A stretch of DNA of 56,781 nt, taken from assembly GCA_001781915.1 (NCBI GenBank), contig MFMU01000003.1, positions 1,188 through 57,968 on the forward strand. The letters are read 5' to 3'. Of the stretch, positions 104-9,506 are shown in pieces. The DNA comes from Candidatus Kaiserbacteria bacterium RIFOXYD1_FULL_47_14. Lineage in GTDB: Bacteria; Patescibacteriota; Minisyncoccia; Phycocordibacterales; Phycocordibacteraceae. The translations under genes were made by a program, and so were the position numbers. The notes under the pieces are model-generated. The model worked only from the letters and a program-made list of their open reading frames with translations, was not told where the DNA came from and did no database searches. Within the stretch, counting starts at the first letter, position 1, and each line of letters begins with the position of its first letter.

Positions 104-124
104 ACATATATAATACTACAATAA

Positions 125-176
125 GCATAGACATTTACCTGCATTCATACCGCTGATTTTACCACAAACCGGTATT
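125..176. repeat. ~52-bp motif, copy A (shared with 5055..5109)
   Basis: gcataga...tcataccgctgatttta(c/t)cac... has a 17-nt identical core (tcataccgctgatttta) with 5055..5109. It lies next to an HExxH gene in both loci. Confidence 0.6.
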
Positions 177-843
177 AATAATCCTTTGGGCTAGTGAGGT
201 CGTTGAACGCGTCGTATGTTGGTTCAAATCCGTATACCTCTTTGAACAAATCATCAAACTTACCCTTTGTCATGTTTCCACTGGTTTCTTTAATTTTTTG
301 TAGAAGCTCAAGAATTTTCTCCTTGCCGAAGGCGTCGATGAGGACTTTTATTGCAAAAGCGGATTCATCATAAACTTCGGCGCCATCTTTATTGAAAAAC
401 TCAAGGAAGGAAGAAAAGGATTTTGGTTTCTCTTTAAACTGAATATCTCCAGAGACATAACCACTTAACCCTTCATTCAGCCATATGGGAGTACGCACGC
501 CATTTGTACTCGAGTTGAAGAATAGATGACAAAGTTCATGTGCGAGAAGTGCATTATATTCATCGATGGAATATTCCCTCGCAGATTCTGTCTTCATCTT
601 TTCCCTTGAAAGAAGAAATACTTTGCGGCGATCAGACCATCCAACTACCCACGGTTCAGTTTTTTCATTTCGCAGACAATCTATCGTTGTGCGATCTTCA
701 ACAACAAAAACAGAAGGAAGATTATGAATCCAACCGATATTAAAGAAGTTATTGAGTCGCTCCATTGCCGCTTTATATGATTCTTCCAACTCACCTTCAA
801 TTAGCTTGAGAGTTAAGTTAAATAGGTAGGACATAAAATACAT
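175..843 (-). CDS. HExxH zinc-metallopeptidase-like protein (candidate leader peptidase)
   Basis: 222-aa ORF with LAHELCHLFF followed by WLNEGLSGY (gluzincin-like HExxH...E). No signal peptide. TGATATAAT extended -10 just upstream (minus strand, ~850-860). Confidence 0.6.
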   Translation of the reverse strand: MYFMSYLFNLTLKLIEGELEESYKAAMERLNNFFNIGWIHNLPSVFVVEDRTTIDCLRNEKTEPWVVGWSDRRKVFLLSREKMKTESAREYSIDEYNALLAHELCHLFFNSSTNGVRTPIWLNEGLSGYVSGDIQFKEKPKSFSSFLEFFNKDGAEVYDESAFAIKVLIDAFGKEKILELLQKIKETSGNMTKGKFDDLFKEVYGFEPTYDAFNDLTSPKDY

Positions 844-871
844 AAGACATTATATCAAGATTTATAAAAAA

Positions 872-903
872 AGCCCGATGATTAAGATAATAATCACCGG
901 GCT
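872..903 (-). terminator. intrinsic terminator after precursor peptide 1
   Basis: Minus strand AGCCCGGTGATTA-ttatct-TAATCATCGGGCT (13-bp stem, one mismatch) followed by TTTTTTTAT. Confidence 0.6.
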
Positions 904-919
904 CGCACAACAGTCATCT

Positions 920-1084
920 TTAGGTGCTATGACAATGACAGTTGCAACTCGTACCGTCGCAGTTTTGGCACGATTCGCAGTCGCATTGGTCACTCACCAT
1001 GTTTCTATCCTGGTCATGGTAGTGTAGCGACAGGAAACCGTTGCCGGAACCTGACTTCTTTACAGGTGCTTTGTTAGGATCCAA
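920..1084 (-). CDS. Cys-rich RiPP precursor candidate 1 (54 aa from TTG; ORF track gives 920..1117)
   Basis: C-terminus CDCESCQNCDGTSCNCHCHST. AAGGAGGTGA lies 5 nt upstream of TTG(1084), inside the last codons of the rSAM gene. The leader motif NGFLSL matches DGFVSF of peptide 2. Confidence 0.6.
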   Translation of the reverse strand: MDPNKAPVKKSGSGNGFLSLHYHDQDRNMVSDQCDCESCQNCDGTSCNCHCHST

Positions 1085-2429
1085 TTTCTTCACCTCCTTC
1101 CTCCTGTGTGATGGCACCGCCCCTCTTGATTAGAGCCGTGCAGAATCCTTCAACATCCTCAATACCACTCCAATCTATCCTTGGATCATGTGGAACATAT
1201 GTGCATTCCTGATGGAATTGCTCAAGAACACTCAGTCCGGCATGATCAAGGAAGAAACTACCGATACGACCGTTGGTTTCAAGAACAGTGACCGATGCCC
1301 CAAAAGATTCTTTCCGTATCCGATATTTCCTCAACCTGAAGCGATTTCCGTTTCTTTCCTCGCTCAATGGTTTTGTTTGGCTCACTTTCATTTTATGAAT
1401 TCTCATTGCTGCCTCAACACCACCTGCCGTCATGTAAGGATCGGCAGCAGAAAGATCGCCATCGGAATGCATTTTTGATTCCATTCGACAGCCGCCACCG
1501 CACATACTTACCATTTTACAGCTACTGCAAAACTGCGGTACATAGGCGGTGCGTCTCCAATCATCCATGCGTTGCCACACATCGATGATGCTCTCAACTA
1601 AGAGATTTCCATACTGGATATCAAGATGAGAACATGGGCGAACATCTCCGCCACTAGATATTGTACAGGTTGTTACCCCAGCTGGACACCGACGAGATTC
1701 CAGGTCTGAAGCGCCGTCTACGCTCGCCAATGTGCACAATGGATACGGTTCCAGATGCCCACACTTTAGACCAGTTTCTTTGCTCACTGCAACCAATTCA
1801 GTCATGTACTGAATGAACTGCTTTTTAGTGAGAGACATATCAGAAAAGTCAGAGCAATTACCGGGACACCCTACCTTCGTCGCATTGAAGCTTTTCATTC
1901 CGAGAGAAACAACGAGCATAGCAGTGTCCTTGATAACATTCAGATTCATCTGCGATACGACCATGTTTGCGGAAACTCGAATTCCCGCATCTTGCGCAAT
2001 CCCAATACCTGCGAGTGTTCTTTTGAATGCCCCTTTTCGCTGAGCGATAGCATCGTGAACCTCAGCGTTTGGGCCCATCACAGATGTCAGCACACTGTTG
2101 ATGCCGAGATTCTTCAAGGTCATTGCCTTCTGCTTGGTGAGTGTTACAAGATTTGAATTGAGATACGGTTTTATCCCCGACTCATTCGCAAGCTCCAGAC
2201 ACGCAACAAGCACATTGAAGTTTAATAACGGTTCACCACCAGTGAATGTTATTTCGTGAACACCCGCATCTGCAATCATGTGCATGATTTTCCGTCCGTT
2301 TGCCAATGTGAGTGGCACTTCTGTTTTTGATGAAGCGCGCCAGTAGTTGTAACAATGCAGACATTTGTTATTGCATGCAGTTGTCACCTCAAGCTGGCAA
2401 TTAAGCGGTCCTGATAGCGTTCTGTACAT
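1074..2429 (-). CDS. radical SAM/SPASM-domain peptide-modifying enzyme, copy 1
   Basis: N-terminal CNNKCLHC (CxxxCxxC). C-terminal SPASM-type cysteines (CPAGVTTC, RPCSHL, CSSCKMVSMCGGGC). ~100-aa C-terminal extension. Confidence 0.9.
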   Translation of the reverse strand: MYRTLSGPLNCQLEVTTACNNKCLHCYNYWRASSKTEVPLTLANGRKIMHMIADAGVHEITFTGGEPLLNFNVLVACLELANESGIKPYLNSNLVTLTKQKAMTLKNLGINSVLTSVMGPNAEVHDAIAQRKGAFKRTLAGIGIAQDAGIRVSANMVVSQMNLNVIKDTAMLVVSLGMKSFNATKVGCPGNCSDFSDMSLTKKQFIQYMTELVAVSKETGLKCGHLEPYPLCTLASVDGASDLESRRCPAGVTTCTISSGGDVRPCSHLDIQYGNLLVESIIDVWQRMDDWRRTAYVPQFCSSCKMVSMCGGGCRMESKMHSDGDLSAADPYMTAGGVEAAMRIHKMKVSQTKPLSEERNGNRFRLRKYRIRKESFGASVTVLETNGRIGSFFLDHAGLSVLEQFHQECTYVPHDPRIDWSGIEDVEGFCTALIKRGGAITQEEGGEEIGS

Positions 2430-2593
2430 TTCACACCATCCTTTCTATTAGACATTAAAAGATCAAGATATTCGACTCCGAATACCGCCCGTGTGCACTA
2501 TGGCACATCGATGCGAAAAACGCAAATATTTATATCAAAATATATTTCTTTGTTTTGCGTGGATAGGAGTCAAAAAAATAGAAATTATAAAAA

Positions 2594-2615
2594 GCGCCAC
2601 CCTTTCGAGTAGCGC
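2594..2615 (-). terminator. terminator retained from the truncated membrane-protein paralog
   Basis: Minus strand GCGCTAC-tcgaaagg-GTGGCGC + TTTTTAT. The sequence is identical at 7734..7755. Confidence 0.5.
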
Positions 2616-2616
2616 T

Positions 2617-2705
2617 TTATTTCATCAACCAAACCGCCCATTTGTATCCTTGAAACCCAGCCCAGTAAATCCCTAGCCAAACTACTATGCTTATTAGGAC
2701 GGACA
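2617..2705 (-). pseudogene. 3' remnant of a paralog of membrane protein 7757..8284, truncated by IS insertion
   Basis: Nucleotide homology to 7757..7844 (encoding ...WLGIYWAGFQGYKWAVW.MK*) stops abruptly at 2705, where the IS3 terminal TGGACCCC begins. Confidence 0.6.
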
Positions 2706-2763
2706 TGGACCCCAAAATTTGCATACCAACCTTGTATGATTAACCGCGCTAACATACAAGCAT

Positions 2764-3018
2764 ATGAAAAAGCACCGTACCGCTCCCGATGTGAAGGAGC
2801 AGATTATCAACCGCATTAAAAACGATGGCATTTCTGTTGTTGATGCAGCCAAGGACCATGGCATCTCCGAGAACACCATCTATGGCTGGATTGCCAAGAA
2901 GACCGATGGACAGCCGACTCTCTCAGAGATCATCAAACTGAAGCGAGAGAACGCACAGTTGTTTCAGTTGGTCGGCGAGATGACGCTCAAGCTGTCTGAC
3001 ACCCAAAAAAAGAAGTGA
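2764..3018 (+). CDS. IS3-family transposase OrfA (HTH + leucine-zipper-like)
   Basis: 84 aa. HTH segment ISVVDAAKDHGISENTIYGW. Ends at the slippery run. Confidence 0.85.
   Translation: MKKHRTAPDVKEQIINRIKNDGISVVDAAKDHGISENTIYGWIAKKTDGQPTLSEIIKLKRENAQLFQLVGEMTLKLSDTQKKK
3006..3012 (+). promoter_or_regulatory. programmed -1 frameshift heptamer A AAA AAG
   Basis: A_AAA_AAG lies in the orfA frame immediately before the orfA stop, and orfB is open in the -1 frame. This is the canonical IS3 arrangement. Confidence 0.6.
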
Positions 3019-3839
3019 GAGAAGAAACGGCTGTCACCAAAACACTCCTCACCCAAAAGCTCGGTATCTCGCTCCGTTCACTCTGGTACAAACCGAAGAA
3101 GCCAGACAGGGACTGGAAACTCAAATGTCGCATCGAGGAGGTGTTGCGAGAACATCCGTCATACGGATCTCGGAGAATCGCTCTGCATCTGAAAATGAAT
3201 CGGAAGCCGATCAAGCGAGTGATGAACCTGTTCGGCATCAAGGCGTATCGGAGACGAGGCCAGAAGTGGAAGAAAACCAAGAATATCAAGGTGATTTATC
3301 CGAATCTGCTCATGACGGAATGTCCACTGTATGAGAATCACATCTGGGTATCCGACTTCACCCGCCTGCCGTTTCAGGGCAAGGTGGTGTATGTCGCAAC
3401 GGTTGAGGATTTGTTCACTAGAAAGATTGTCGGTCTCTCGGTGTATACCAACCATGCGGTTGGTCTGGTGTTGTCGGCATTCATGAATGCCATTCATGAC
3501 CATGCTCGACCAGTCATCTTCCATTCTGACAACGGCAGTGAATACAATGCCAAGGTATTCATTGAAGCACTCGAGACCGTTGGCGTTATGATCTCTCGCT
3601 CAGCTCCAGGATGCCCGTGGGAGAATGGGTATCAAGAGAGCTTCTATGACAAATTCAAAGTGGATCTTGGTGATCCTGCTAGATTCAAAACGCTCGGCGA
3701 ACTCGTGCTCGCCATCTATCAGACAATCTGGCAGTACAACCACACTAGAATCCACTCGGCATTGAAAATACCGCCTGTGCAATTTGCGCTTCAGGCGGCA
3801 CAGATATATCATTTAGCTAACAAGGAAGGCGTGCAATGA
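3015..3839 (+). CDS. IS3-family transposase OrfB (DDE/rve integrase core)
   Basis: WVSDFT...HSDNGSEY...PWENGYQESF, the typical DDE spacing of rve-type transposases. Confidence 0.85.
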   Translation: MREETAVTKTLLTQKLGISLRSLWYKPKKPDRDWKLKCRIEEVLREHPSYGSRRIALHLKMNRKPIKRVMNLFGIKAYRRRGQKWKKTKNIKVIYPNLLMTECPLYENHIWVSDFTRLPFQGKVVYVATVEDLFTRKIVGLSVYTNHAVGLVLSAFMNAIHDHARPVIFHSDNGSEYNAKVFIEALETVGVMISRSAPGCPWENGYQESFYDKFKVDLGDPARFKTLGELVLAIYQTIWQYNHTRIHSALKIPPVQFALQAAQIYHLANKEGVQ

Positions 3840-3854
3840 AATGGGTCCACGCGC

Positions 3855-4872
3855 ATTCCGTACTCAGTTAGGACACTCGTTAATATGCGATCATGCACAT
3901 CAAAGGAGATCTGACGCGCGCCGAGCGTCTTGAAATCGGCATTTTGTTGTTGGAGAAGGGGTATTCGGGGCGTTCAGTCGCTCGCGCTCTCAATCGCAGC
4001 CCGAACACCATCTCATATGAGATACGGAAGAACAGTACGCTCGGTGCGTATGATCCGCTGAAAGCAGACGCTAAAGCGCGGGTGCGCAAGCACTATCGAA
4101 AATTAGAGTGGTCCAAAATTGAAGCTGATCCAGATCTGAAAAAGTTTGTGGTCAGAAAGCTCAAGAAACACTGGAATCCTGACGAGATAGCCGGATACCT
4201 GAAGCGCACGAAGGCACCGGCGTATGTATCTAAAACTGCCATATACATCTGGTTGTGCACTTCACGCGTGGAAAGATACTGCGAACTCTTGTATTCAAAA
4301 CGAAAACGAGTGAAGAAACAAAAACCAAAAATTAAGAAGACCTTAATCCCAAACCGCATTGGTATTGCAGAGCGTTTCGCAGGTGCCGACAACCGTACGA
4401 GAGGCGGACACTGGGAACGAGATACCATCACCGGGCGCAGAGGAACGACTTGCGGACTTGCCACGGCACAAGAAAGAAAGAGCCGCCTTGTTGTGGCATG
4501 CAAGGTGGAGAGTATGCGATCGATCGAACATCTGGCGGCAGACCGAACGATGTTCGAGGATATGAAAACGCTCTCGGTATCGCGTGACAATGGTATTGAG
4601 AATCGAGAACACGAAGCGCTTGGTATTCCGTCTTTCTTCTGCGATCCATACTCGTCCTGGCAGAAAGGCGGCATCGAAAATGCGAACAAGATGTTGCGTC
4701 GGTACTTCCCGAAAGGCACTGACTTCAGCGAAGTGTCGCAAGGCGAAGTTGATCGGGCTGTTCGCTTGATTAACGAAAAGCCGAGGAGAATCCTCGGCTA
4801 TCGTTCCTCGCTTGCAGAAGCAATGCGATTGGATATTATTAAAAAATCGAGTGTCCTAATTCTGGGGTGAAT
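3855..4872 (+). mobile_element. IS30-family insertion sequence (borders approximate)
   Basis: Perfect 12-bp IR core TTAGGACACTCG (3868..3879) / CGAGTGTCCTAA (4848..4859), with weaker flanking matches. It lies only ~5 bp from the IS3 right end. Confidence 0.7.
3893..4870 (+). CDS. IS30-family transposase
   Basis: N-terminal HTH (RAERLEIGILLEKGYSGRSVARALNRSPNTISYEIRKN). DDE core (WERDTI...SRDNGIEN...SWQKGGIENANKMLRRYFPKG). Confidence 0.85.
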   Translation: MHIKGDLTRAERLEIGILLLEKGYSGRSVARALNRSPNTISYEIRKNSTLGAYDPLKADAKARVRKHYRKLEWSKIEADPDLKKFVVRKLKKHWNPDEIAGYLKRTKAPAYVSKTAIYIWLCTSRVERYCELLYSKRKRVKKQKPKIKKTLIPNRIGIAERFAGADNRTRGGHWERDTITGRRGTTCGLATAQERKSRLVVACKVESMRSIEHLAADRTMFEDMKTLSVSRDNGIENREHEALGIPSFFCDPYSSWQKGGIENANKMLRRYFPKGTDFSEVSQGEVDRAVRLINEKPRRILGYRSSLAEAMRLDIIKKSSVLILG

Positions 4873-5054
4873 TTAGCATTCTTCCGAAGAAGATATCGTA
4901 CTGTATGTGCATGGAAATGCAAGGCGTTGTTGAGTTAACAATATTCAAGAGTGATTACTTCGCCACTCCCTCAATGGCTTTTGGATAATAAATTCATCGG
5001 AAAAAAGGTCAACATTATGAATCGGGCTTGGTTTTACAGAAGCTAAAACTGTGA

Positions 5055-5109
5055 GCATAGATAGTTCCCTACTCTCATACCGCTGATTTTATCACAGAAA
5101 CTGGTGATT
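5055..5109. repeat. ~52-bp motif, copy B (shared with 125..176)
   Basis: Same core tcataccgctgatttta as 125..176. Sits 27 nt upstream of the HExxH gene 5136..6020. Confidence 0.6.
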
Positions 5110-5135
5110 GTGTTATAGTAAGAGACACGGAAGTT

Positions 5136-6020
5136 ATGTATATACCTGATATAAATCTAAAAATTGACTTGGACAAAGAGAGCGATATGTTCGTGAAATT
5201 TCTACACCACGAGAAATTTACGCAGAATAGAGATTCTATTTTACATTGCTATCCCGACTTAAGAATATTGCTAGAAACAGACAATACTGACGAGAGTAAA
5301 ACTATTCGCGCATTTCTTGAAAAAAAATACTCTGAATATAATACCGTTATAAAATCAATAATATCCGATTCCGAAGAAAAGATAGACAAATATGGGAAAA
5401 TTATTTTGGAACAATTATCTTCACTAATGGATTATACTTGGCCGAAGGAACATTCTGGATATTTAGTTATACCTACTATTCTTCCATTTTCCCCGTTTAA
5501 TGAAAACACTCTATATTTTTCAATGGCGAGAAAAATCAAAATGAGCGACAAAAAAGAAGATTTGAATCATGGATTCTTGCCTGTTCTTGCTCACGAAATT
5601 TCCCATTTTATGTTAAGGGATATTTTGGAGCAGGACGGAAAAATAAAATACAGTGATTATGGGTGGACTACTAAACATTTTTTACAGGAAATCCTAGCCC
5701 CTATTCTGATGAACCAAAAGCCACTCAAGAAGATTCTTGACATTGAAGATTATCTAGGGAATCCATATCTAAAACACTTGAATGTTGAAAAGGATTCTGT
5801 TTCAGAAAATATCGTCAATCATTATAATAGGATGTATGCATCCATGAAGTATGACGGCAAAAGATCGTTTGCAGAAATCATAAAAATAATAGCAGGTGAA
5901 TTAGAGAGTGTCAGCACCACGCTAGATGAGAAATTTAAGATGTGGAATACCTATGGGCACAATATTTCCTCAAATGACCTTCTTCTTCAAAAATACAAAA
6001 CTCCTATTCCTATAAAGTAA
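5136..6020 (+). CDS. HExxH-motif protein 2 (putative metallopeptidase)
   Basis: 294-aa AT-rich ORF with LPVLAHEISHFML. Converges on precursor 2. No other family recognised. Confidence 0.5.
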   Translation: MYIPDINLKIDLDKESDMFVKFLHHEKFTQNRDSILHCYPDLRILLETDNTDESKTIRAFLEKKYSEYNTVIKSIISDSEEKIDKYGKIILEQLSSLMDYTWPKEHSGYLVIPTILPFSPFNENTLYFSMARKIKMSDKKEDLNHGFLPVLAHEISHFMLRDILEQDGKIKYSDYGWTTKHFLQEILAPILMNQKPLKKILDIEDYLGNPYLKHLNVEKDSVSENIVNHYNRMYASMKYDGKRSFAEIIKIIAGELESVSTTLDEKFKMWNTYGHNISSNDLLLQKYKTPIPIK

Positions 6021-6021
6021 A

Positions 6022-6045
6022 AGCGCCACGATGAATTGTGGCGCT
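6022..6045. terminator. bidirectional terminator between 5136..6020 and precursor 2
   Basis: AGCGCCAC-gatgaatt-GTGGCGCT. T-tract on the minus strand (TTTTACTTTAT). Confidence 0.55.
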
Positions 6046-6063
6046 CGGCGACGGATATGGTAG

Positions 6064-6201
6064 TCAATTGTTATCGCATTCTTCGCAATTGACATTGCAG
6101 TCATGACAACTGTTATCGCATTCTGATGCAGCGACAAAAGTCCCTGTCTGACTCGCTTCCGCCTGTACGAAGGAAACAAAACCATCATTCGATTTTTGCA
6201 T
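6064..6201 (-). CDS. Cys-rich RiPP precursor candidate 2 (45 aa, not in ORF track)
   Basis: My translation: MQKSNDGFVSFVQAEASQTGTFVAASECDNSCHDCNVNCEECDNN*. AAAGGGGGTGAT Shine-Dalgarno lies 4 nt before the ATG. Sits 43 nt downstream of the rSAM-2 stop, with a terminator after it. Confidence 0.65.
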   Translation of the reverse strand: MQKSNDGFVSFVQAEASQTGTFVAASECDNSCHDCNVNCEECDNN

Positions 6202-6244
6202 AATATCACCCCCTTTCTAGAGAAGAAGTTTAGCATGCAGTTCG

Positions 6245-7546
6245 CTATTTCGCAATAGCGATTCCTCGTCGAACAATACCATCGACAAAACTGTCTGAGT
6301 CAATGGTGCCCCATTGAATCCGTTTGTCTCCTGGTGAATATCGAATTCCTACTTCGAGTTGCTTTAAGAGTTCGAAACCAGCATCGTTCAAGAATGCCCG
6401 AGATTTCCCTGCGAGGACTGTAATCCCGAAAGGTTCACGCCGGTAGCGATAAGATTTTATTTCAAAATCTTTTATCGGTTTTTTGCTAGGCATTTTTTCG
6501 CGGTGCTTTTGAAGCGAAGAGAAACTTCTTTCAGCATCTTCGGGCGAGCTGTAAGGATCCGCACTGGAAAGATCTCCATTGCGCATTTTCGCTTCCATAC
6601 GACAACCACCGCCACACACTTGTGAAAGTGTACAACTCTTACAGATTACTGGTAGAAAAGCTCCATTTCTCCAAGTTTCCATGCGAACCCAGATCTTTTT
6701 CAGGTCTTCCATGAACAAGTTCCCGTATGACTCATCGAGATGAGAACAGGGTCTGACTTCACCGTCACTGGCGATAGTCATCGTGGTCACACCGGCATAG
6801 CATCTCCTGCCAATAAACGAATAGTGATAATCCAGATCACCAATTCCACACAGCGGATATCCCTCAAGGGCATCAATTGCAAGATCGAATTCTTCACCGC
6901 TTTCTCGTAAATCTCGTAGATATTGCCGGAATTCACTTTTGGACAGAGAAAATTGTGAAAAATCGGAGCAATTTCCTGGACATCCAGCCTTAGTGGCTGA
7001 AAACATCTTTACGCCAATAGAGGATACAATTCTTGCTGTTTCCTTGATATTGGAAAGATTCATTTTCGAAACCACCATATTAACTGCGACGCGAATTCCT
7101 TCCTCCTGAGCTATCTGACTGTTTTCCACGACTTTCTTGAATGATCCTTTTGATTGAGCAATCTTGTCGTGTATCTCCGGCAAGGAACCCATTAATGAAG
7201 TCAGGATTTGTTTTACCCCTAGGGAACGCAGTTCACGAGCACGAGTTCTGGTTAATAGAACCAGATTTGAGTTCAGGGAGACACCCAAATTCGCATTTTG
7301 TGCCTCCTTGAGGCAATGGAGTAGAGCATCGTACTTTATCAATGGTTCGCCACCAGTGATTATGATGTCGAACACCTTTGCATCAGCCATCTTCTCTACA
7401 ATTTCGCTAACAGTGGATTTATTGAGGGAAGTGTTGACTCGCTTGAGATCCTTTCGCCAAAAATTGTAACAGTGAGAACAATTATGGTTACAGGAAGTCG
7501 TGAGTTCTACTTGATAGTTTATTGGCGCCGAAAGCGTTTGATACAT
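6245..7546 (-). CDS. radical SAM/SPASM-domain peptide-modifying enzyme, copy 2
   Basis: CNHNCSHC (CxxxCxxC). SPASM cysteines (CYAGVTTM..RPCSHL..CKSCTLSQVCGGGC). Roughly half the residues are identical to copy 1 by eye. Confidence 0.9.
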   Translation of the reverse strand: MYQTLSAPINYQVELTTSCNHNCSHCYNFWRKDLKRVNTSLNKSTVSEIVEKMADAKVFDIIITGGEPLIKYDALLHCLKEAQNANLGVSLNSNLVLLTRTRARELRSLGVKQILTSLMGSLPEIHDKIAQSKGSFKKVVENSQIAQEEGIRVAVNMVVSKMNLSNIKETARIVSSIGVKMFSATKAGCPGNCSDFSQFSLSKSEFRQYLRDLRESGEEFDLAIDALEGYPLCGIGDLDYHYSFIGRRCYAGVTTMTIASDGEVRPCSHLDESYGNLFMEDLKKIWVRMETWRNGAFLPVICKSCTLSQVCGGGCRMEAKMRNGDLSSADPYSSPEDAERSFSSLQKHREKMPSKKPIKDFEIKSYRYRREPFGITVLAGKSRAFLNDAGFELLKQLEVGIRYSPGDKRIQWGTIDSDSFVDGIVRRGIAIAK

Positions 7547-7733
7547 GATACACCTCCTTTCCTATTTGACATTAAAAGATCAAGATATTCGACTTTGAAT
7601 ACCTCCAAGTGGGATTATGGCACATCAATACAAAGAATACAAGTTCTAGCGCAGTACGCCCAACTTGTTTATATCGAAATATATTTCTTCGTTTTGCGCG
7701 GATAGGAATCCCAAAAAATAGAAATTATAAAAA

Positions 7734-7755
7734 GCGCCACCCTTTCGAGTAGCGC
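7734..7755 (-). terminator. intrinsic terminator of 7757..8284
   Basis: Same hairpin plus T-tract as 2594..2615. Confidence 0.5.
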
Positions 7756-7756
7756 T

Positions 7757-8284
7757 TTATTTCATCATCCAAACCGCCCATTTATATCCCTGGAACCCAG
7801 CCCAGTAAATCCCGAGCCAAACTACCATGCTTATCAGGACTGACGGCAAGGTAATCCGGAGGAATGTTACCAGGTATCCTTCTTCTTTCTTACGAATGAG
7901 CAGTGTTACATAATCCGGATCGATGTAGAACCAGCTACCAATCCAGAAGATGAGTCGCTTGCTCATAAGAATTCGCCGTACCAACCGCTTGAACCACTGA
8001 TTTTTCAGAAGCACTGCATGTTCAAGTTGGCGGAATCCTTCTATTCCAATTGGATCCCACCCTTTCTTGATAGCTATATCATTACCAAGAACGACGAGGA
8101 TACAAGCGGCCAGATAGATTGGTGTAACAATGACAAACGCTTTTGTAATGCCATTGATTCCATGTTCTGGGTCCATTGTCAAGAACCAGATAATGAGAGC
8201 ATCGACAAAACGAGTCAAAATAGTAATAACTCTCTCCGAAAGAATGGCGTGTAGGAGAGAGGTGCTCGGCGCACGCTTTTCCAC
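7757..8284 (-). CDS. multi-pass membrane protein, unknown family
   Basis: 175 aa with several hydrophobic segments (ITILTRFVDALIIWFL, FVIVTPIYLAACILVVL, VLISMVVWLGIYWAGF). Lies upstream of rSAM-2 on the same strand. Confidence 0.6.
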   Translation of the reverse strand: MEKRAPSTSLLHAILSERVITILTRFVDALIIWFLTMDPEHGINGITKAFVIVTPIYLAACILVVLGNDIAIKKGWDPIGIEGFRQLEHAVLLKNQWFKRLVRRILMSKRLIFWIGSWFYIDPDYVTLLIRKKEEGYLVTFLRITLPSVLISMVVWLGIYWAGFQGYKWAVWMMK

Positions 8285-8417
8285 GAGGAAACCCTCCTAT
8301 AAACTGTGTTTACAAGGACACTTCTAAACCTAGAATTAACTAGGAGTTGAAAGAACTTTTAACCCGTTTACTATGCTAGCATATTGATGACAGTATGTCA
8401 ATACTCCAGTACAAGGT

Positions 8418-9506
8418 CTAATTACTGGCCCAAATGAAGGAATTTTTCTCTCCGAAGCTCGGTACGAGTACATCGTTTCTGTTGAAGTTCCCGAATATTT
8501 TTTTGAACTTATTCTCGATTATTTTCGCGGCGTCTATATATTTCGGGATTACGGCAGCAGCTCCTGCCTGCGCACTTATCCACCCATTCGGTTTTAATAT
8601 CTCCTTTGACAATCTGAAAATCTCTTCATAAAACTCGCCCATCTTGTTTTTAGCTCCTCGACTACCCATCGGATTATCGGTCAAATCGGAAATAATCCCA
8701 TCCACCTTTTCTCCATTTTTATTTGCATACATCTTTAGATAATTCATAGCATCTCCTATATTGAGAGTTACATTTGGATGAGAGAATACTTTTTGATTTA
8801 GATATTTTTTTGCGAAAAATACTACCTCGGCATCGAGATCAATTATGGTGATTTTCAAATCTGGATTTATTTTCAGCGCCATTTCTGCCACATATCCATC
8901 TCCCCCGCCGAGTATGATGATATTTCTGTCTGTTGGTTTGAGCGGAGCTAGAATTGCTTTGTCATATCGTTCATGATCAAATTCGGAAGTTTGTACTAAT
9001 CCGTCTATAACCAAGCTTTTCCCGAACTTCTTTAGGTCTGCGACAACAATATCTTGAAAAGCAGAATGTATCTCTGCCAATTTTTTTATGACTCTAGTTC
9101 GACTCGTCTCCCCTGTTCTATATATAGGGGATTCTAGATACTCTAGAATATTATATCCGCGTTTAATTTTCTGAATTTGCTTTTTTGTGGACTCAACCGC
9201 TTTCACCAGAAAGTCAGCAGCTTTAAGTGTATTCTCATCATCTGAACAACTGAAAACATCGCAAGCGACATAATTATATTCAGGCCAACTATGAATTGAT
9301 ATGTGAGAAGTTGAAAGAAGTAAAAATCCTGTTATGCCCTGCGGTTTAAATTCATGGAAATGAGTGTGGAGTATCTCCATACTGGCGGCTTGAGCCGCTC
9401 CGATTAAAGTATCATTCCAAAACTTTTTTGAGTTTATCTGATGAGGATCGCAACCTGACAAATCAATTAAAATATGCAATCCTTTTGTCTTTCTTAAATG
9501 ACTCAT
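8418..9506 (-). CDS. fusion of S-adenosylmethionine decarboxylase (SpeH/SpeD-type, pyruvoyl) and spermidine synthase (SpeE-like)
   Basis: N-terminal HEFKPQGITGFLLLSTSHISIHSWPE..CDVFSC matches the small bacterial AdoMetDC processing region. C-terminal IILGGGDGYVAEMALK, IIDLDAEVV and ISDLTD match the aminopropyltransferase fold. Confidence 0.8.
   Translation of the reverse strand: MSHLRKTKGLHILIDLSGCDPHQINSKKFWNDTLIGAAQAASMEILHTHFHEFKPQGITGFLLLSTSHISIHSWPEYNYVACDVFSCSDDENTLKAADFLVKAVESTKKQIQKIKRGYNILEYLESPIYRTGETSRTRVIKKLAEIHSAFQDIVVADLKKFGKSLVIDGLVQTSEFDHERYDKAILAPLKPTDRNIIILGGGDGYVAEMALKINPDLKITIIDLDAEVVFFAKKYLNQKVFSHPNVTLNIGDAMNYLKMYANKNGEKVDGIISDLTDNPMGSRGAKNKMGEFYEEIFRLSKEILKPNGWISAQAGAAAVIPKYIDAAKIIENKFKKIFGNFNRNDVLVPSFGEKNSFIWASN

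Follow-up and report, generated by a model that had tools for sequence, protein, structure and literature searches.

Why should the non-coding DNA in front of two radical S-adenosylmethionine (SAM) enzyme genes be far better conserved than the genes themselves? The question is posed by a stretch of 56,781 nucleotides (nt) from Candidatus Kaiserbacteria bacterium RIFOXYD1_FULL_47_14, a groundwater organism (contig MFMU01000003.1, positions 1,188–57,968; assembly of 628 kb, 94% complete), here called the window and numbered from its first letter. It contains two loci, A and B, each with a radical SAM/SPASM peptide maturase gene (rSAM-1, 1074–2429, and rSAM-2, 6245–7546, both on the minus strand), a gene for a short precursor peptide and a gene for a protein with a HExxH motif. 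A preliminary reading made from the letters alone, called the sequence-only reading below, had described these as two copies of the same locus and had offered two alternatives for the upstream conservation: a 5′ regulatory leader common to both and strongly constrained, or gene conversion that was recent and restricted to the upstream region. The ~290-nt conserved tract appears to be a composite with two unrelated causes, the joining of two alleles of the locus and a promoter-leader module found across the genus, and we put the probability of this at about 0.7. Both earlier alternatives hold, each for a different segment of the tract: constraint to the proximal part, nearest the start codons, and recent shared ancestry to the distal part, for which strict gene conversion is not required.

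In a blastn comparison of the two loci, 2413–2704 aligns with 7530–7844 at 81.4% identity over 317 columns (E 5e-83), whereas the interiors of the rSAM genes give only short matching patches of 65–77%. A repeat search returned 94% identity over 132 nt for 2573–2704 against 7713–7844, and 88% for 2529–2578 against 7668–7717. Taken by segment, A and B agree at 80 of 89 positions (90%) in the 3′ remnant of a membrane gene, at 44 of 46 (96%) in its terminator, at 37 of 41 (90%) in a distal spacer, at ~74% in the promoter, which also has a 22-nt indel, and at 77–85% in the 5′ untranslated region (UTR). Between rSAM-1 and rSAM-2, protein identity is 46% and DNA identity 52.7%; 29.6% of their third codon positions are identical, and at four-fold degenerate sites the identity is 21% against a chance expectation of 26%, so the synonymous sites are saturated. 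The sequence-only reading was thus right that the leader is far better conserved than the genes (81.4%, and 90–96% in parts, against 52.7% for rSAM DNA) and that the two enzymes are about half identical; the three nearly identical upstream blocks that it had quoted are all where it placed them, and the result that it had named as fatal to its claim, an upstream identity no higher than that of synonymous sites, is clearly not what was obtained. Across the 628-kb genome there are exactly two occurrences of the tract. The opposite ends of the two loci are also collinear, over a shorter block (~55 nt, ~80% identity; 124–177 against 5054–5110).

The distal ~175 nt of the tract in locus A consists of a spacer and the intrinsic terminator of a truncated membrane gene (2531–2616, minus strand; hairpin 2591–2618; terminator called by a scan), which are 90–96% identical to 7671–7756, and of the last 29 codons of that gene (2617–2705, minus strand), recognized by a tblastn-type match and 90% identical to 7757–7845. 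In locus B, the spacer and terminator (7671–7756, minus strand; hairpin 7731–7758) belong to an intact 175-amino-acid (aa) membrane gene (7757–8284, minus strand), which blastp clustering places in a family here called type 1. The A/B homology ends at 2704, and an IS3-family insertion sequence (IS) element (2706–3849, plus strand; orfA 2764–3018, orfB 3015–3839) begins at 2706, that is, 1–2 nt away. The element has the orfA/orfB pair and TG...CA inverted ends of its family (TGGACCC at 2706, GGGTCCA at 3849) and scores 194 bits with NF033516 against a cut-off of 160; its homology to an IS3 relative in locus L011 stops at the same place.

This distal tract is absent upstream of the rSAM-1 orthologs of L031 and L034, whose proteins are 83–88% identical, upstream of the rSAM-2 orthologs of L011–L013 and L036, and 3′ of the orthologous membrane gene in the syntenic genome G130. 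The membrane-gene remnant and the intact copy show two non-synonymous differences, the remainder being synonymous. Constraint cannot account for this part of the tract, because it is unconserved in orthologous loci and is partly the coding end of a gene that has been destroyed in A. One might still suppose that the entire 290 nt, terminator and membrane-gene end included, is a single long regulatory region under constraint, given the 44 of 46 identical positions over the terminator and its T-tract and the location of this region directly 5′ of both promoters. That supposition is largely refuted, and we regard it as very improbable: the tract takes in the end of a destroyed gene whose differences are mostly synonymous, neither the orthologs of rSAM-1 and rSAM-2 nor syntenic G130 have kept anything 5′ of the −35, and the identity breaks off at the end of IS3. 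The signature of gene conversion is not seen either, since the proximal boundary lies near the start codon and the distal boundary is the end of IS3 rather than diverged homologous DNA; duplication or recombination fits better. We read the distal ~175 nt as a probable trace of recent shared ancestry by recombination or duplication, a scar bounded by IS3, and hence as ordinary genome dynamics.

The gene order on both sides of the scar shows what was joined. Along the minus strand, the B half runs from a SpeD/SpeE fusion gene (8418–9506) through the membrane gene, terminator, promoter-leader, rSAM-2, precursor 2, HExxH-2 (inverted) and a conserved block L′ (5054–5110, minus strand) to the decayed start of a SET gene (4945–5058, minus strand). 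It continues through an IS30-family element (3850–4915, ends approximate, plus strand; transposase 3893–4870; NF033563, 192 bits; weak inverted repeats), IS3, the 29-codon membrane-gene remnant, terminator, promoter-leader, rSAM-1, precursor 1, HExxH-1, block L (124–177, minus strand), an intact SET gene and a histidine kinase. Block L is the intergenic sequence between the HExxH-1 stop and the SET start (103), and on the minus strand it has an extended −10-like TGGTAAAAT that was read by eye as a promoter. The decayed SET start in B, MLTVLASVKPS, matches the N-terminus of a SET-domain protein of G126, a genome of the same genus, at 10 of 11 residues (E 4e-5), and locus A runs on into its intact SET gene with a different N-terminus. 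When the decayed gene was compared with this genome's own SET protein, just a 9-residue patch was found, and the G126 N-terminus was the match retained.

Each locus is therefore a full allele reaching from membrane gene to SET gene, because both flanks are retained in both, in the order membrane gene, terminator, promoter-leader, rSAM, precursor peptide, HExxH protein, SET promoter and SET gene. The phrase "two copies of the same locus" turns out to be better founded than the sequence-only reading had claimed. The alleles lie head to tail, and their junction consists of the IS30 element in or next to the SET start of B and the IS3 element that cuts the membrane gene of A. The remnant, terminator and spacer, 90–96% identical and ending at IS3, suggest that the flanks were recently shared, and these flanks would have far more recent ancestry in common than the cassettes they enclose.

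The simplest route to such a structure would be recombination between related strains or chromosomes that carried different cassettes at the same site, which could have taken the form of Campbell-type integration of an IS-bounded circle via the shared flank or of unequal crossing-over between strains. A cassette-free version of the neighborhood exists in G130 (Cys-rich protein, SpeD/E, leader, membrane gene, histidine kinase), and the B-type locus L013 and the A-type locus L031 have the same 279-aa upstream neighbor, which indicates that one cassette type takes the place of the other at a single site. Comparable systems are bacteriocin and capsule loci, in which variable cassettes are enclosed by conserved flanks, and IS26-type translocatable units. 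As in IS-mediated duplication or Campbell integration, diverged cassettes here lie between conserved flanks, the breakpoint is exactly at an IS end and the flank is present in duplicate, on either side of the insert; unlike in those cases, two different elements (IS30 and IS3) are at the junction, there is no target duplication, and neither donor nor single-cassette haplotype was observed.

Because the contigs were assembled from metagenomes and the junction contains insertion elements, a chimera of two co-existing strains made by the assembler has to be considered as the source of the tandem arrangement. We give this hardly any credence. The tandem order recurs in 20 + 8 = 28 public contigs from independent assemblies of many samples, and it is repeated across assemblers (ENA megahit and SPAdes, ANAN16 scaffolds, JGI), so it is no assembly artifact. 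In several samples of the same population (public contigs L017, L019, L022 and L023), orfB of the IS3 element is split into pieces of 150 and 69 aa, and the element is decaying or polymorphic in the population. An IS3-family relative with 74–80% DNA identity to that of the window adjoins the HExxH-2 homolog of a B-type cassette in L011 (7466–8529, minus strand), with the order and orientation that these parts have in the window but at a different exact site; as evidence that cassette B travels with IS3 it was set aside as a weak hint, given the 74–80% identity and the different site.

The cassettes themselves are anciently diverged lineages. Relatives of rSAM-1 are found at 75–88% identity and those of rSAM-2 at 65–73%, and each cassette has its closer relatives in other organisms, not in the sister cassette. 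In a maximum-likelihood tree, rSAM-1 groups with P0055, P0050 and P0046 (83–88% identity; clade support 100/100) and rSAM-2 with P0002–P0006 (69–73%; 100/99); the names attached to the rSAM homologs are Patescibacteria and Paceibacterota. The precursors follow the same division, one type for each rSAM clade: A-type peptides have the pattern ...NGFLSLHY...CDQCDCESCQNCD... and B-type peptides ...DGFVSFVQ...ECENCDCYDCNVNCEECD.... Precursor 1 (920–1117, minus strand) has the leader motif NGFLSLHY and a Cys/Asp-rich core CDCESCQNCDGTSCNCHCHST and is conserved 3′ of the rSAM-1 orthologs, and precursor 2 (6064–6201, minus strand) has DGFVSFVQ and the core ECDNSCHDCNVNCEECDNN and is conserved in L011, L012, L013 and L036.

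Locus A encodes a Peptidase_MA_2-like metallopeptidase, HExxH-1 (175–843, minus strand; Pfam PF13485, E 3e-9), with orthologs that come after the rSAM-1 orthologs in L031, L033 and L035. HExxH-2 of locus B (5136–6020, plus strand) is inverted relative to rSAM-2 and has orthologs in matching position and orientation in L011–L013. Homology between the two HExxH proteins was undetectable (blastp E 0.22), and the genes lie on opposite strands, in agreement with the sequence-only reading, which had found them not obviously homologous.

Both rSAM proteins have the features expected of maturases of RiPPs (peptides that are ribosomally synthesized and then post-translationally modified), namely domains PF04055 and PF13186 and an adjacent Cys-rich precursor that is kept in orthologous loci. 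They fall short of the PapB/SCIFF equivalogs: with NF047865 one reaches 59 bits and the other 73.5, below the cut-off of 340, and no equivalog cut-off was reached. Radical SAM/SPASM RiPP clusters of the ranthipeptide/SCIFF type, for example that of PapB (PMC9413430), are similar in that they pair a short Cys/Asp-rich precursor with an adjacent radical SAM enzyme that has CxxxCxxC and a SPASM domain, and in that a peptidase is close by. The present cassettes differ from PapB-type clusters in that the precursor lies 3′ of the enzyme and the family cut-offs are missed. In precursor 1, Leu stands at the position of the orthologs' start Met, and its start codon is probably TTG. This peptide also has Gly and Ser where the L031, L034 and L035 orthologs have Cys (KSCSG to KSGSG, VCDQC to VSDQC).

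The proximal ~115 nt of the tract is promoter and 5′ UTR. Promoter A (2497–2527, minus strand) has a −35-like TTGCGT (2520–2525), a 17-nt spacer and an extended −10 TGcCATAGT (2497–2505), and leader A (2427–2496, minus strand; covariance-model match of 77–87 bits) contains a hairpin called P1 (2467–2486), the motif UUGAUCUUUUAA (2455–2466), the Shine-Dalgarno sequence AAAGGATGGTG (2434–2444) and the start codon (2427–2429). Promoter B (7614–7644, minus strand) likewise has TTGTAT (7637–7642), a 17-nt spacer and TGcCATAAT, and leader B (7544–7613, minus strand; 66–78 bits) has P1 at 7584–7603, the UUGAUCUUUUAA motif at 7572–7583, a Shine-Dalgarno sequence at 7551–7561 and its start codon at 7544–7546. 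The first relatives seen were the leaders of two rSAM-1 orthologs (L034 and L035) and of a different gene (L126). These three and A and B have in common a −35-like TTGCRT, a 17-nt spacer with an extended −10 TGnTATAGT, a hairpin GGUAUUC...GAAUAYC and the motif UUGAUCUUUU. The module as a whole has a weak −35 TTGCRT, a 17-nt spacer, the extended −10 TGnTATAGT, ~10 nt, hairpin P1 (GGUAUUCGG...CCGAAUACC), a conserved U-rich UUGRUCUUUUAAC immediately behind the hairpin, and a long Shine-Dalgarno sequence 29–52 nt further on.

The sequence-only reading had proposed a covariance search across related genomes, and this is where the leader shows its range. A first covariance model, built from 6 UTRs, already detected the element in genomes of the genus, and a second was built from 21 copies; the second gave 31 matches at E ≤ 1e-3 in 22 of 150 genomes of the same genus, with a hairpin that covaries, and only weak, partial matches in 149 genomes of other families of the order. 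The promoter layout is kept upstream of more than 30 leaders in the genus, though promoter A was not called by a strict consensus scan. Rfam gave no match in either leader (E ≤ 1) or in 16 further leader loci (E ≤ 5), and a literature search turned up no account of a motif like this one for these bacteria. Judged by this pattern of conservation, the proximal ~115 nt is a real, undescribed and genus-wide promoter-leader.

An exact scan of JGI metagenome contigs for the hairpin and motif gave 7 matches against ~6 expected by chance (our own estimate), and L126 was the only true relative among them. A reading of the motif as the −35 of a second promoter was dropped, there being no −10 at the correct spacing by eye. 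In the window, the region before the intact membrane gene (8285–8417, minus strand) has TTGACA-17-TAGCAT, which looks like a promoter, together with a GUUCUUUCAAC motif; it lacks the P1 hairpin and is not called by the covariance model; the G130 ortholog of that gene is preceded by a full leader. In many other lineages, leaders of rSAM-family loci across Patescibacteria (L036–L075) have a hairpin and, behind it, a motif of the kind GCACCUUAACAA or UGUUCUUUGAAA ~25–60 nt before the start codon, and in cross-validation 30–50% of the held-out leaders scored above the 90th percentile of control leaders, from a small control set.

Could the whole tract, leader included, be the product of recent duplication or gene conversion only, the leader having no conserved function? 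The copies are just 5 kb apart and agree at 31 of 32 nt over the end of the hairpin and the motif, as this would predict. It nevertheless seems improbable. Another 21 genomes of the genus, as well as metagenome contigs, have the promoter-leader, and P1 shows compensatory changes among them; the promoter segment is just ~74% identical and has a 22-nt indel; and promoter B resembles that of the rSAM-2 ortholog in L011 (77%) at least as much as it does promoter A (74%). More generally, promoter and UTR are 74–85% identical between A and B against 62–81% between A and the leaders of its orthologs, and as these values are comparable, ordinary purifying selection suffices as an explanation of the A/B identity of the leader.

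The view that the tract joins an allele junction to a constrained leader has its difficulties, which we gather here. A target-site duplication of IS3 was not found (the flanking triplets are ACA and CGC), as would fit a junction that was rearranged and that IS30 abuts. The public contigs yielded no haplotype with a single cassette, so that the two-allele origin is an inference. For the 138 nt that separate IS30 from L′ there is just a partial explanation. Over a 45-nt core of the UTR, A and B are 85% identical against 67–79% between A and its orthologs, so that some local conversion may have occurred there. Finally, the strong leader copies all come from one genus, and shared descent inflates their counts.

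In 32 aligned copies of P1, 96% of the cells are paired, changes on both sides occur in 5 of 8 pairs, and 16 cells are doubly changed, in an alignment fitted to the covariance model, which favors pairing; none of 500 shuffles reached the observed values, and slid controls were 40–54% paired. The pairs comprise 194 Watson-Crick, 47 G·U and 1 A·C, and the apical part varies in length from 1 to 36 nt. Compensatory change and tolerance of G·U pairs both point to P1 acting as a structured RNA hairpin. An inverted repeat just 3′ of a −10 could also serve a dimeric transcription factor as its DNA operator; the partner of the neighboring histidine kinase would be one such factor, and the kinase is downstream in most of the contexts examined. 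We consider this very unlikely, for a DNA palindrome should lack the strand asymmetry of 47 G·U against 1 A·C, and the spacing of the half-sites varies from 1 to 36 nt; because of this asymmetry and the variable apical length, P1 is better taken as a sense-strand RNA hairpin than as a duplex-DNA operator.

Among the genes behind the leader, the largest group, with 13 copies, is the type 1 family of small membrane proteins, to which the window's own membrane gene belongs; the family has no Pfam match and no name, and a fold search with the type 1 protein was uninformative (AlphaFold pLDDT 74; best PDB match E = 1.2). The leader also stands before rSAM maturases and a type 2 membrane family, with 5 copies each, and before a third membrane family, with 3. 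Further genes behind it are an archaeal-type SAM synthetase in G105 (Pfam E 9e-101), a Cys-rich membrane protein with SpeD/E after it, a NUDIX protein, a 45-aa Cys-rich peptide and two other single genes. This makes 10 distinct downstream gene families, among them at least four of small membrane proteins; most are uncharacterized membrane proteins, some genes are SAM-related, and no housekeeping gene was among the leader matches. In most contexts (L154, L155, L156, L159, L202, L031 and L014), a multi-pass histidine kinase (HATPase_c, 530–590 aa) lies a few genes 3′ of the leader in the same orientation, with variable genes in between. At the start codon the loci cease to be homologous, and this suggests that recombination may exchange the leader module or the genes behind it. 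The leader copy of L196/L144 (G070:C1:92244-92323, minus strand) precedes the 45-aa Cys-rich open reading frame (...MTNNDMKCCYTDCSYCPR), which may be another RiPP precursor under the leader.

How would such a leader act? P1 would lie at the very 5′ end of the mRNA. Stem-loops at the 5′ end that stabilize messages and U-rich translational enhancers are familiar from the ompA, aprE and ermC leaders and from the T7 gene 10 epsilon element. The present leaders resemble these in having a hairpin a few nt from the predicted 5′ end, then a U/A-rich stretch and a long Shine-Dalgarno sequence; they differ in that conservation takes in the sequence of the stem, its two flanks and the promoter spacer before 10 unrelated accessory families, and in that they were not found on housekeeping genes. 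We lean, at somewhat less than even odds, to a leader that acts on the RNA through a 5′-terminal stabilizing hairpin together with a U-rich site that may bind a factor or the ribosome.

Three results count against this reading of the leader. No helix other than P1 was supported in the leader by RNAalifold and a pair screen. Pairing of the motif with the Shine-Dalgarno sequence (UCUUU with AAAGG) was inconsistent in 21 leaders of the genus, with a mean pairing probability of 0.22, and was abandoned as the main mechanism; it is supported for A, L031 and L034, and there is a modest family-wide trend (Mann-Whitney p = 0.006, for sequences that are not independent). The terminator scan called P1 and its tail terminator-like in copy A, not in copy B. 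A pseudoknot between the P1 loop and the motif was also rejected, loop sequence and length being unconserved.

The terminator call in copy A, where P1 and UUGAUCUUUU pass a simple terminator scan, is at the same time an argument for a conditional attenuator or riboswitch, in which P1 and the U-rich tract would terminate or release transcription in response to a ligand or protein and the regulon would be one of envelope and SAM-related genes. The unpaired flanks are conserved in sequence, the 10 unrelated families under the leader include none that is housekeeping, and SAM synthetase, the SpeD/E operon and radical SAM enzymes are in the set; in the genome of the window a SAM synthetase was not detected. 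Known small riboswitches and attenuators of mRNA leaders include the SAM-III/SMK box, preQ1-I and leader terminators. Like SAM-III and preQ1-I, the element is short, lies in the 5′ UTR just before the ribosome-binding site, has a hairpin that is called terminator-like in copy A and precedes some SAM-related genes; unlike them, it has no Rfam match, one supported helix without pseudoknot or alternative pairing, and a gene set of doubtful metabolic coherence.

The single hairpin, moreover, begins ~3–4 nt from the predicted 5′ end, with no room for an upstream aptamer or antiterminator. When the leader was modeled as starting right after the −10, just 9–12 nt preceded P1, and no antiterminator or alternative helix was found; covariation supports P1 only and not a multi-helix or pseudoknotted aptamer. 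A mean of 5.9 of the 10 nt after P1 are U, but the U-tract is interrupted, and copy B is not called terminator-like. The leader is on just 1 of ~5 SAM synthetase genes in the genus, that of G105 and not those of G072, G075 and G023, and a SAM regulon was discarded on this ground. An attenuator or riboswitch is thus a doubtful alternative to a stabilizing hairpin with a U-rich binding site. A little more speculative still is the idea that the leader represents a new class of RNA regulator in a lineage of the candidate phyla radiation, in which the hairpin and UUGRUCUUUUAAC would sense a ligand or a dedicated protein and would also provide portable homology for shuffling the cassettes. The signal could be SAM-related, given the apparent lack of SAM synthetase in the genome. 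If true, accessory membrane proteins, radical SAM enzymes that modify peptides, a SAM synthetase and a polyamine operon would together form one regulon under the leader.

To our knowledge, almost nothing is known of gene regulation in bacteria of the candidate phyla radiation, and the organisms discussed here are all uncultured. If the leader is real, it offers a defined cis-element with ~30 natural variants and compensatory changes, a guilt-by-association link between uncharacterized families of small membrane proteins and peptide-modifying enzymes, and a case in which the promoter-leader stays constant while the RiPP cassettes behind it are exchanged, in genomes of just ~0.6 Mb. The part due to recombination shows how non-coding DNA can look more conserved than the adjacent genes without having a function.

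Two minor observations concern SAM and SET proteins. The genome of the window (G000) encodes three radical SAM/SPASM-like enzymes, an AdoMet decarboxylase/spermidine synthase and a SET methyltransferase, and no SAM synthetase was detected in it with either the bacterial MetK C-terminal domain (PF02773) or the archaeal type (PF01941), in an assembly that is 94% complete; SAM-using enzymes without a detected synthetase suggest SAM import. The SET protein to the left of the window (contig C3) has a run of X in its translation, and some bases are masked there.

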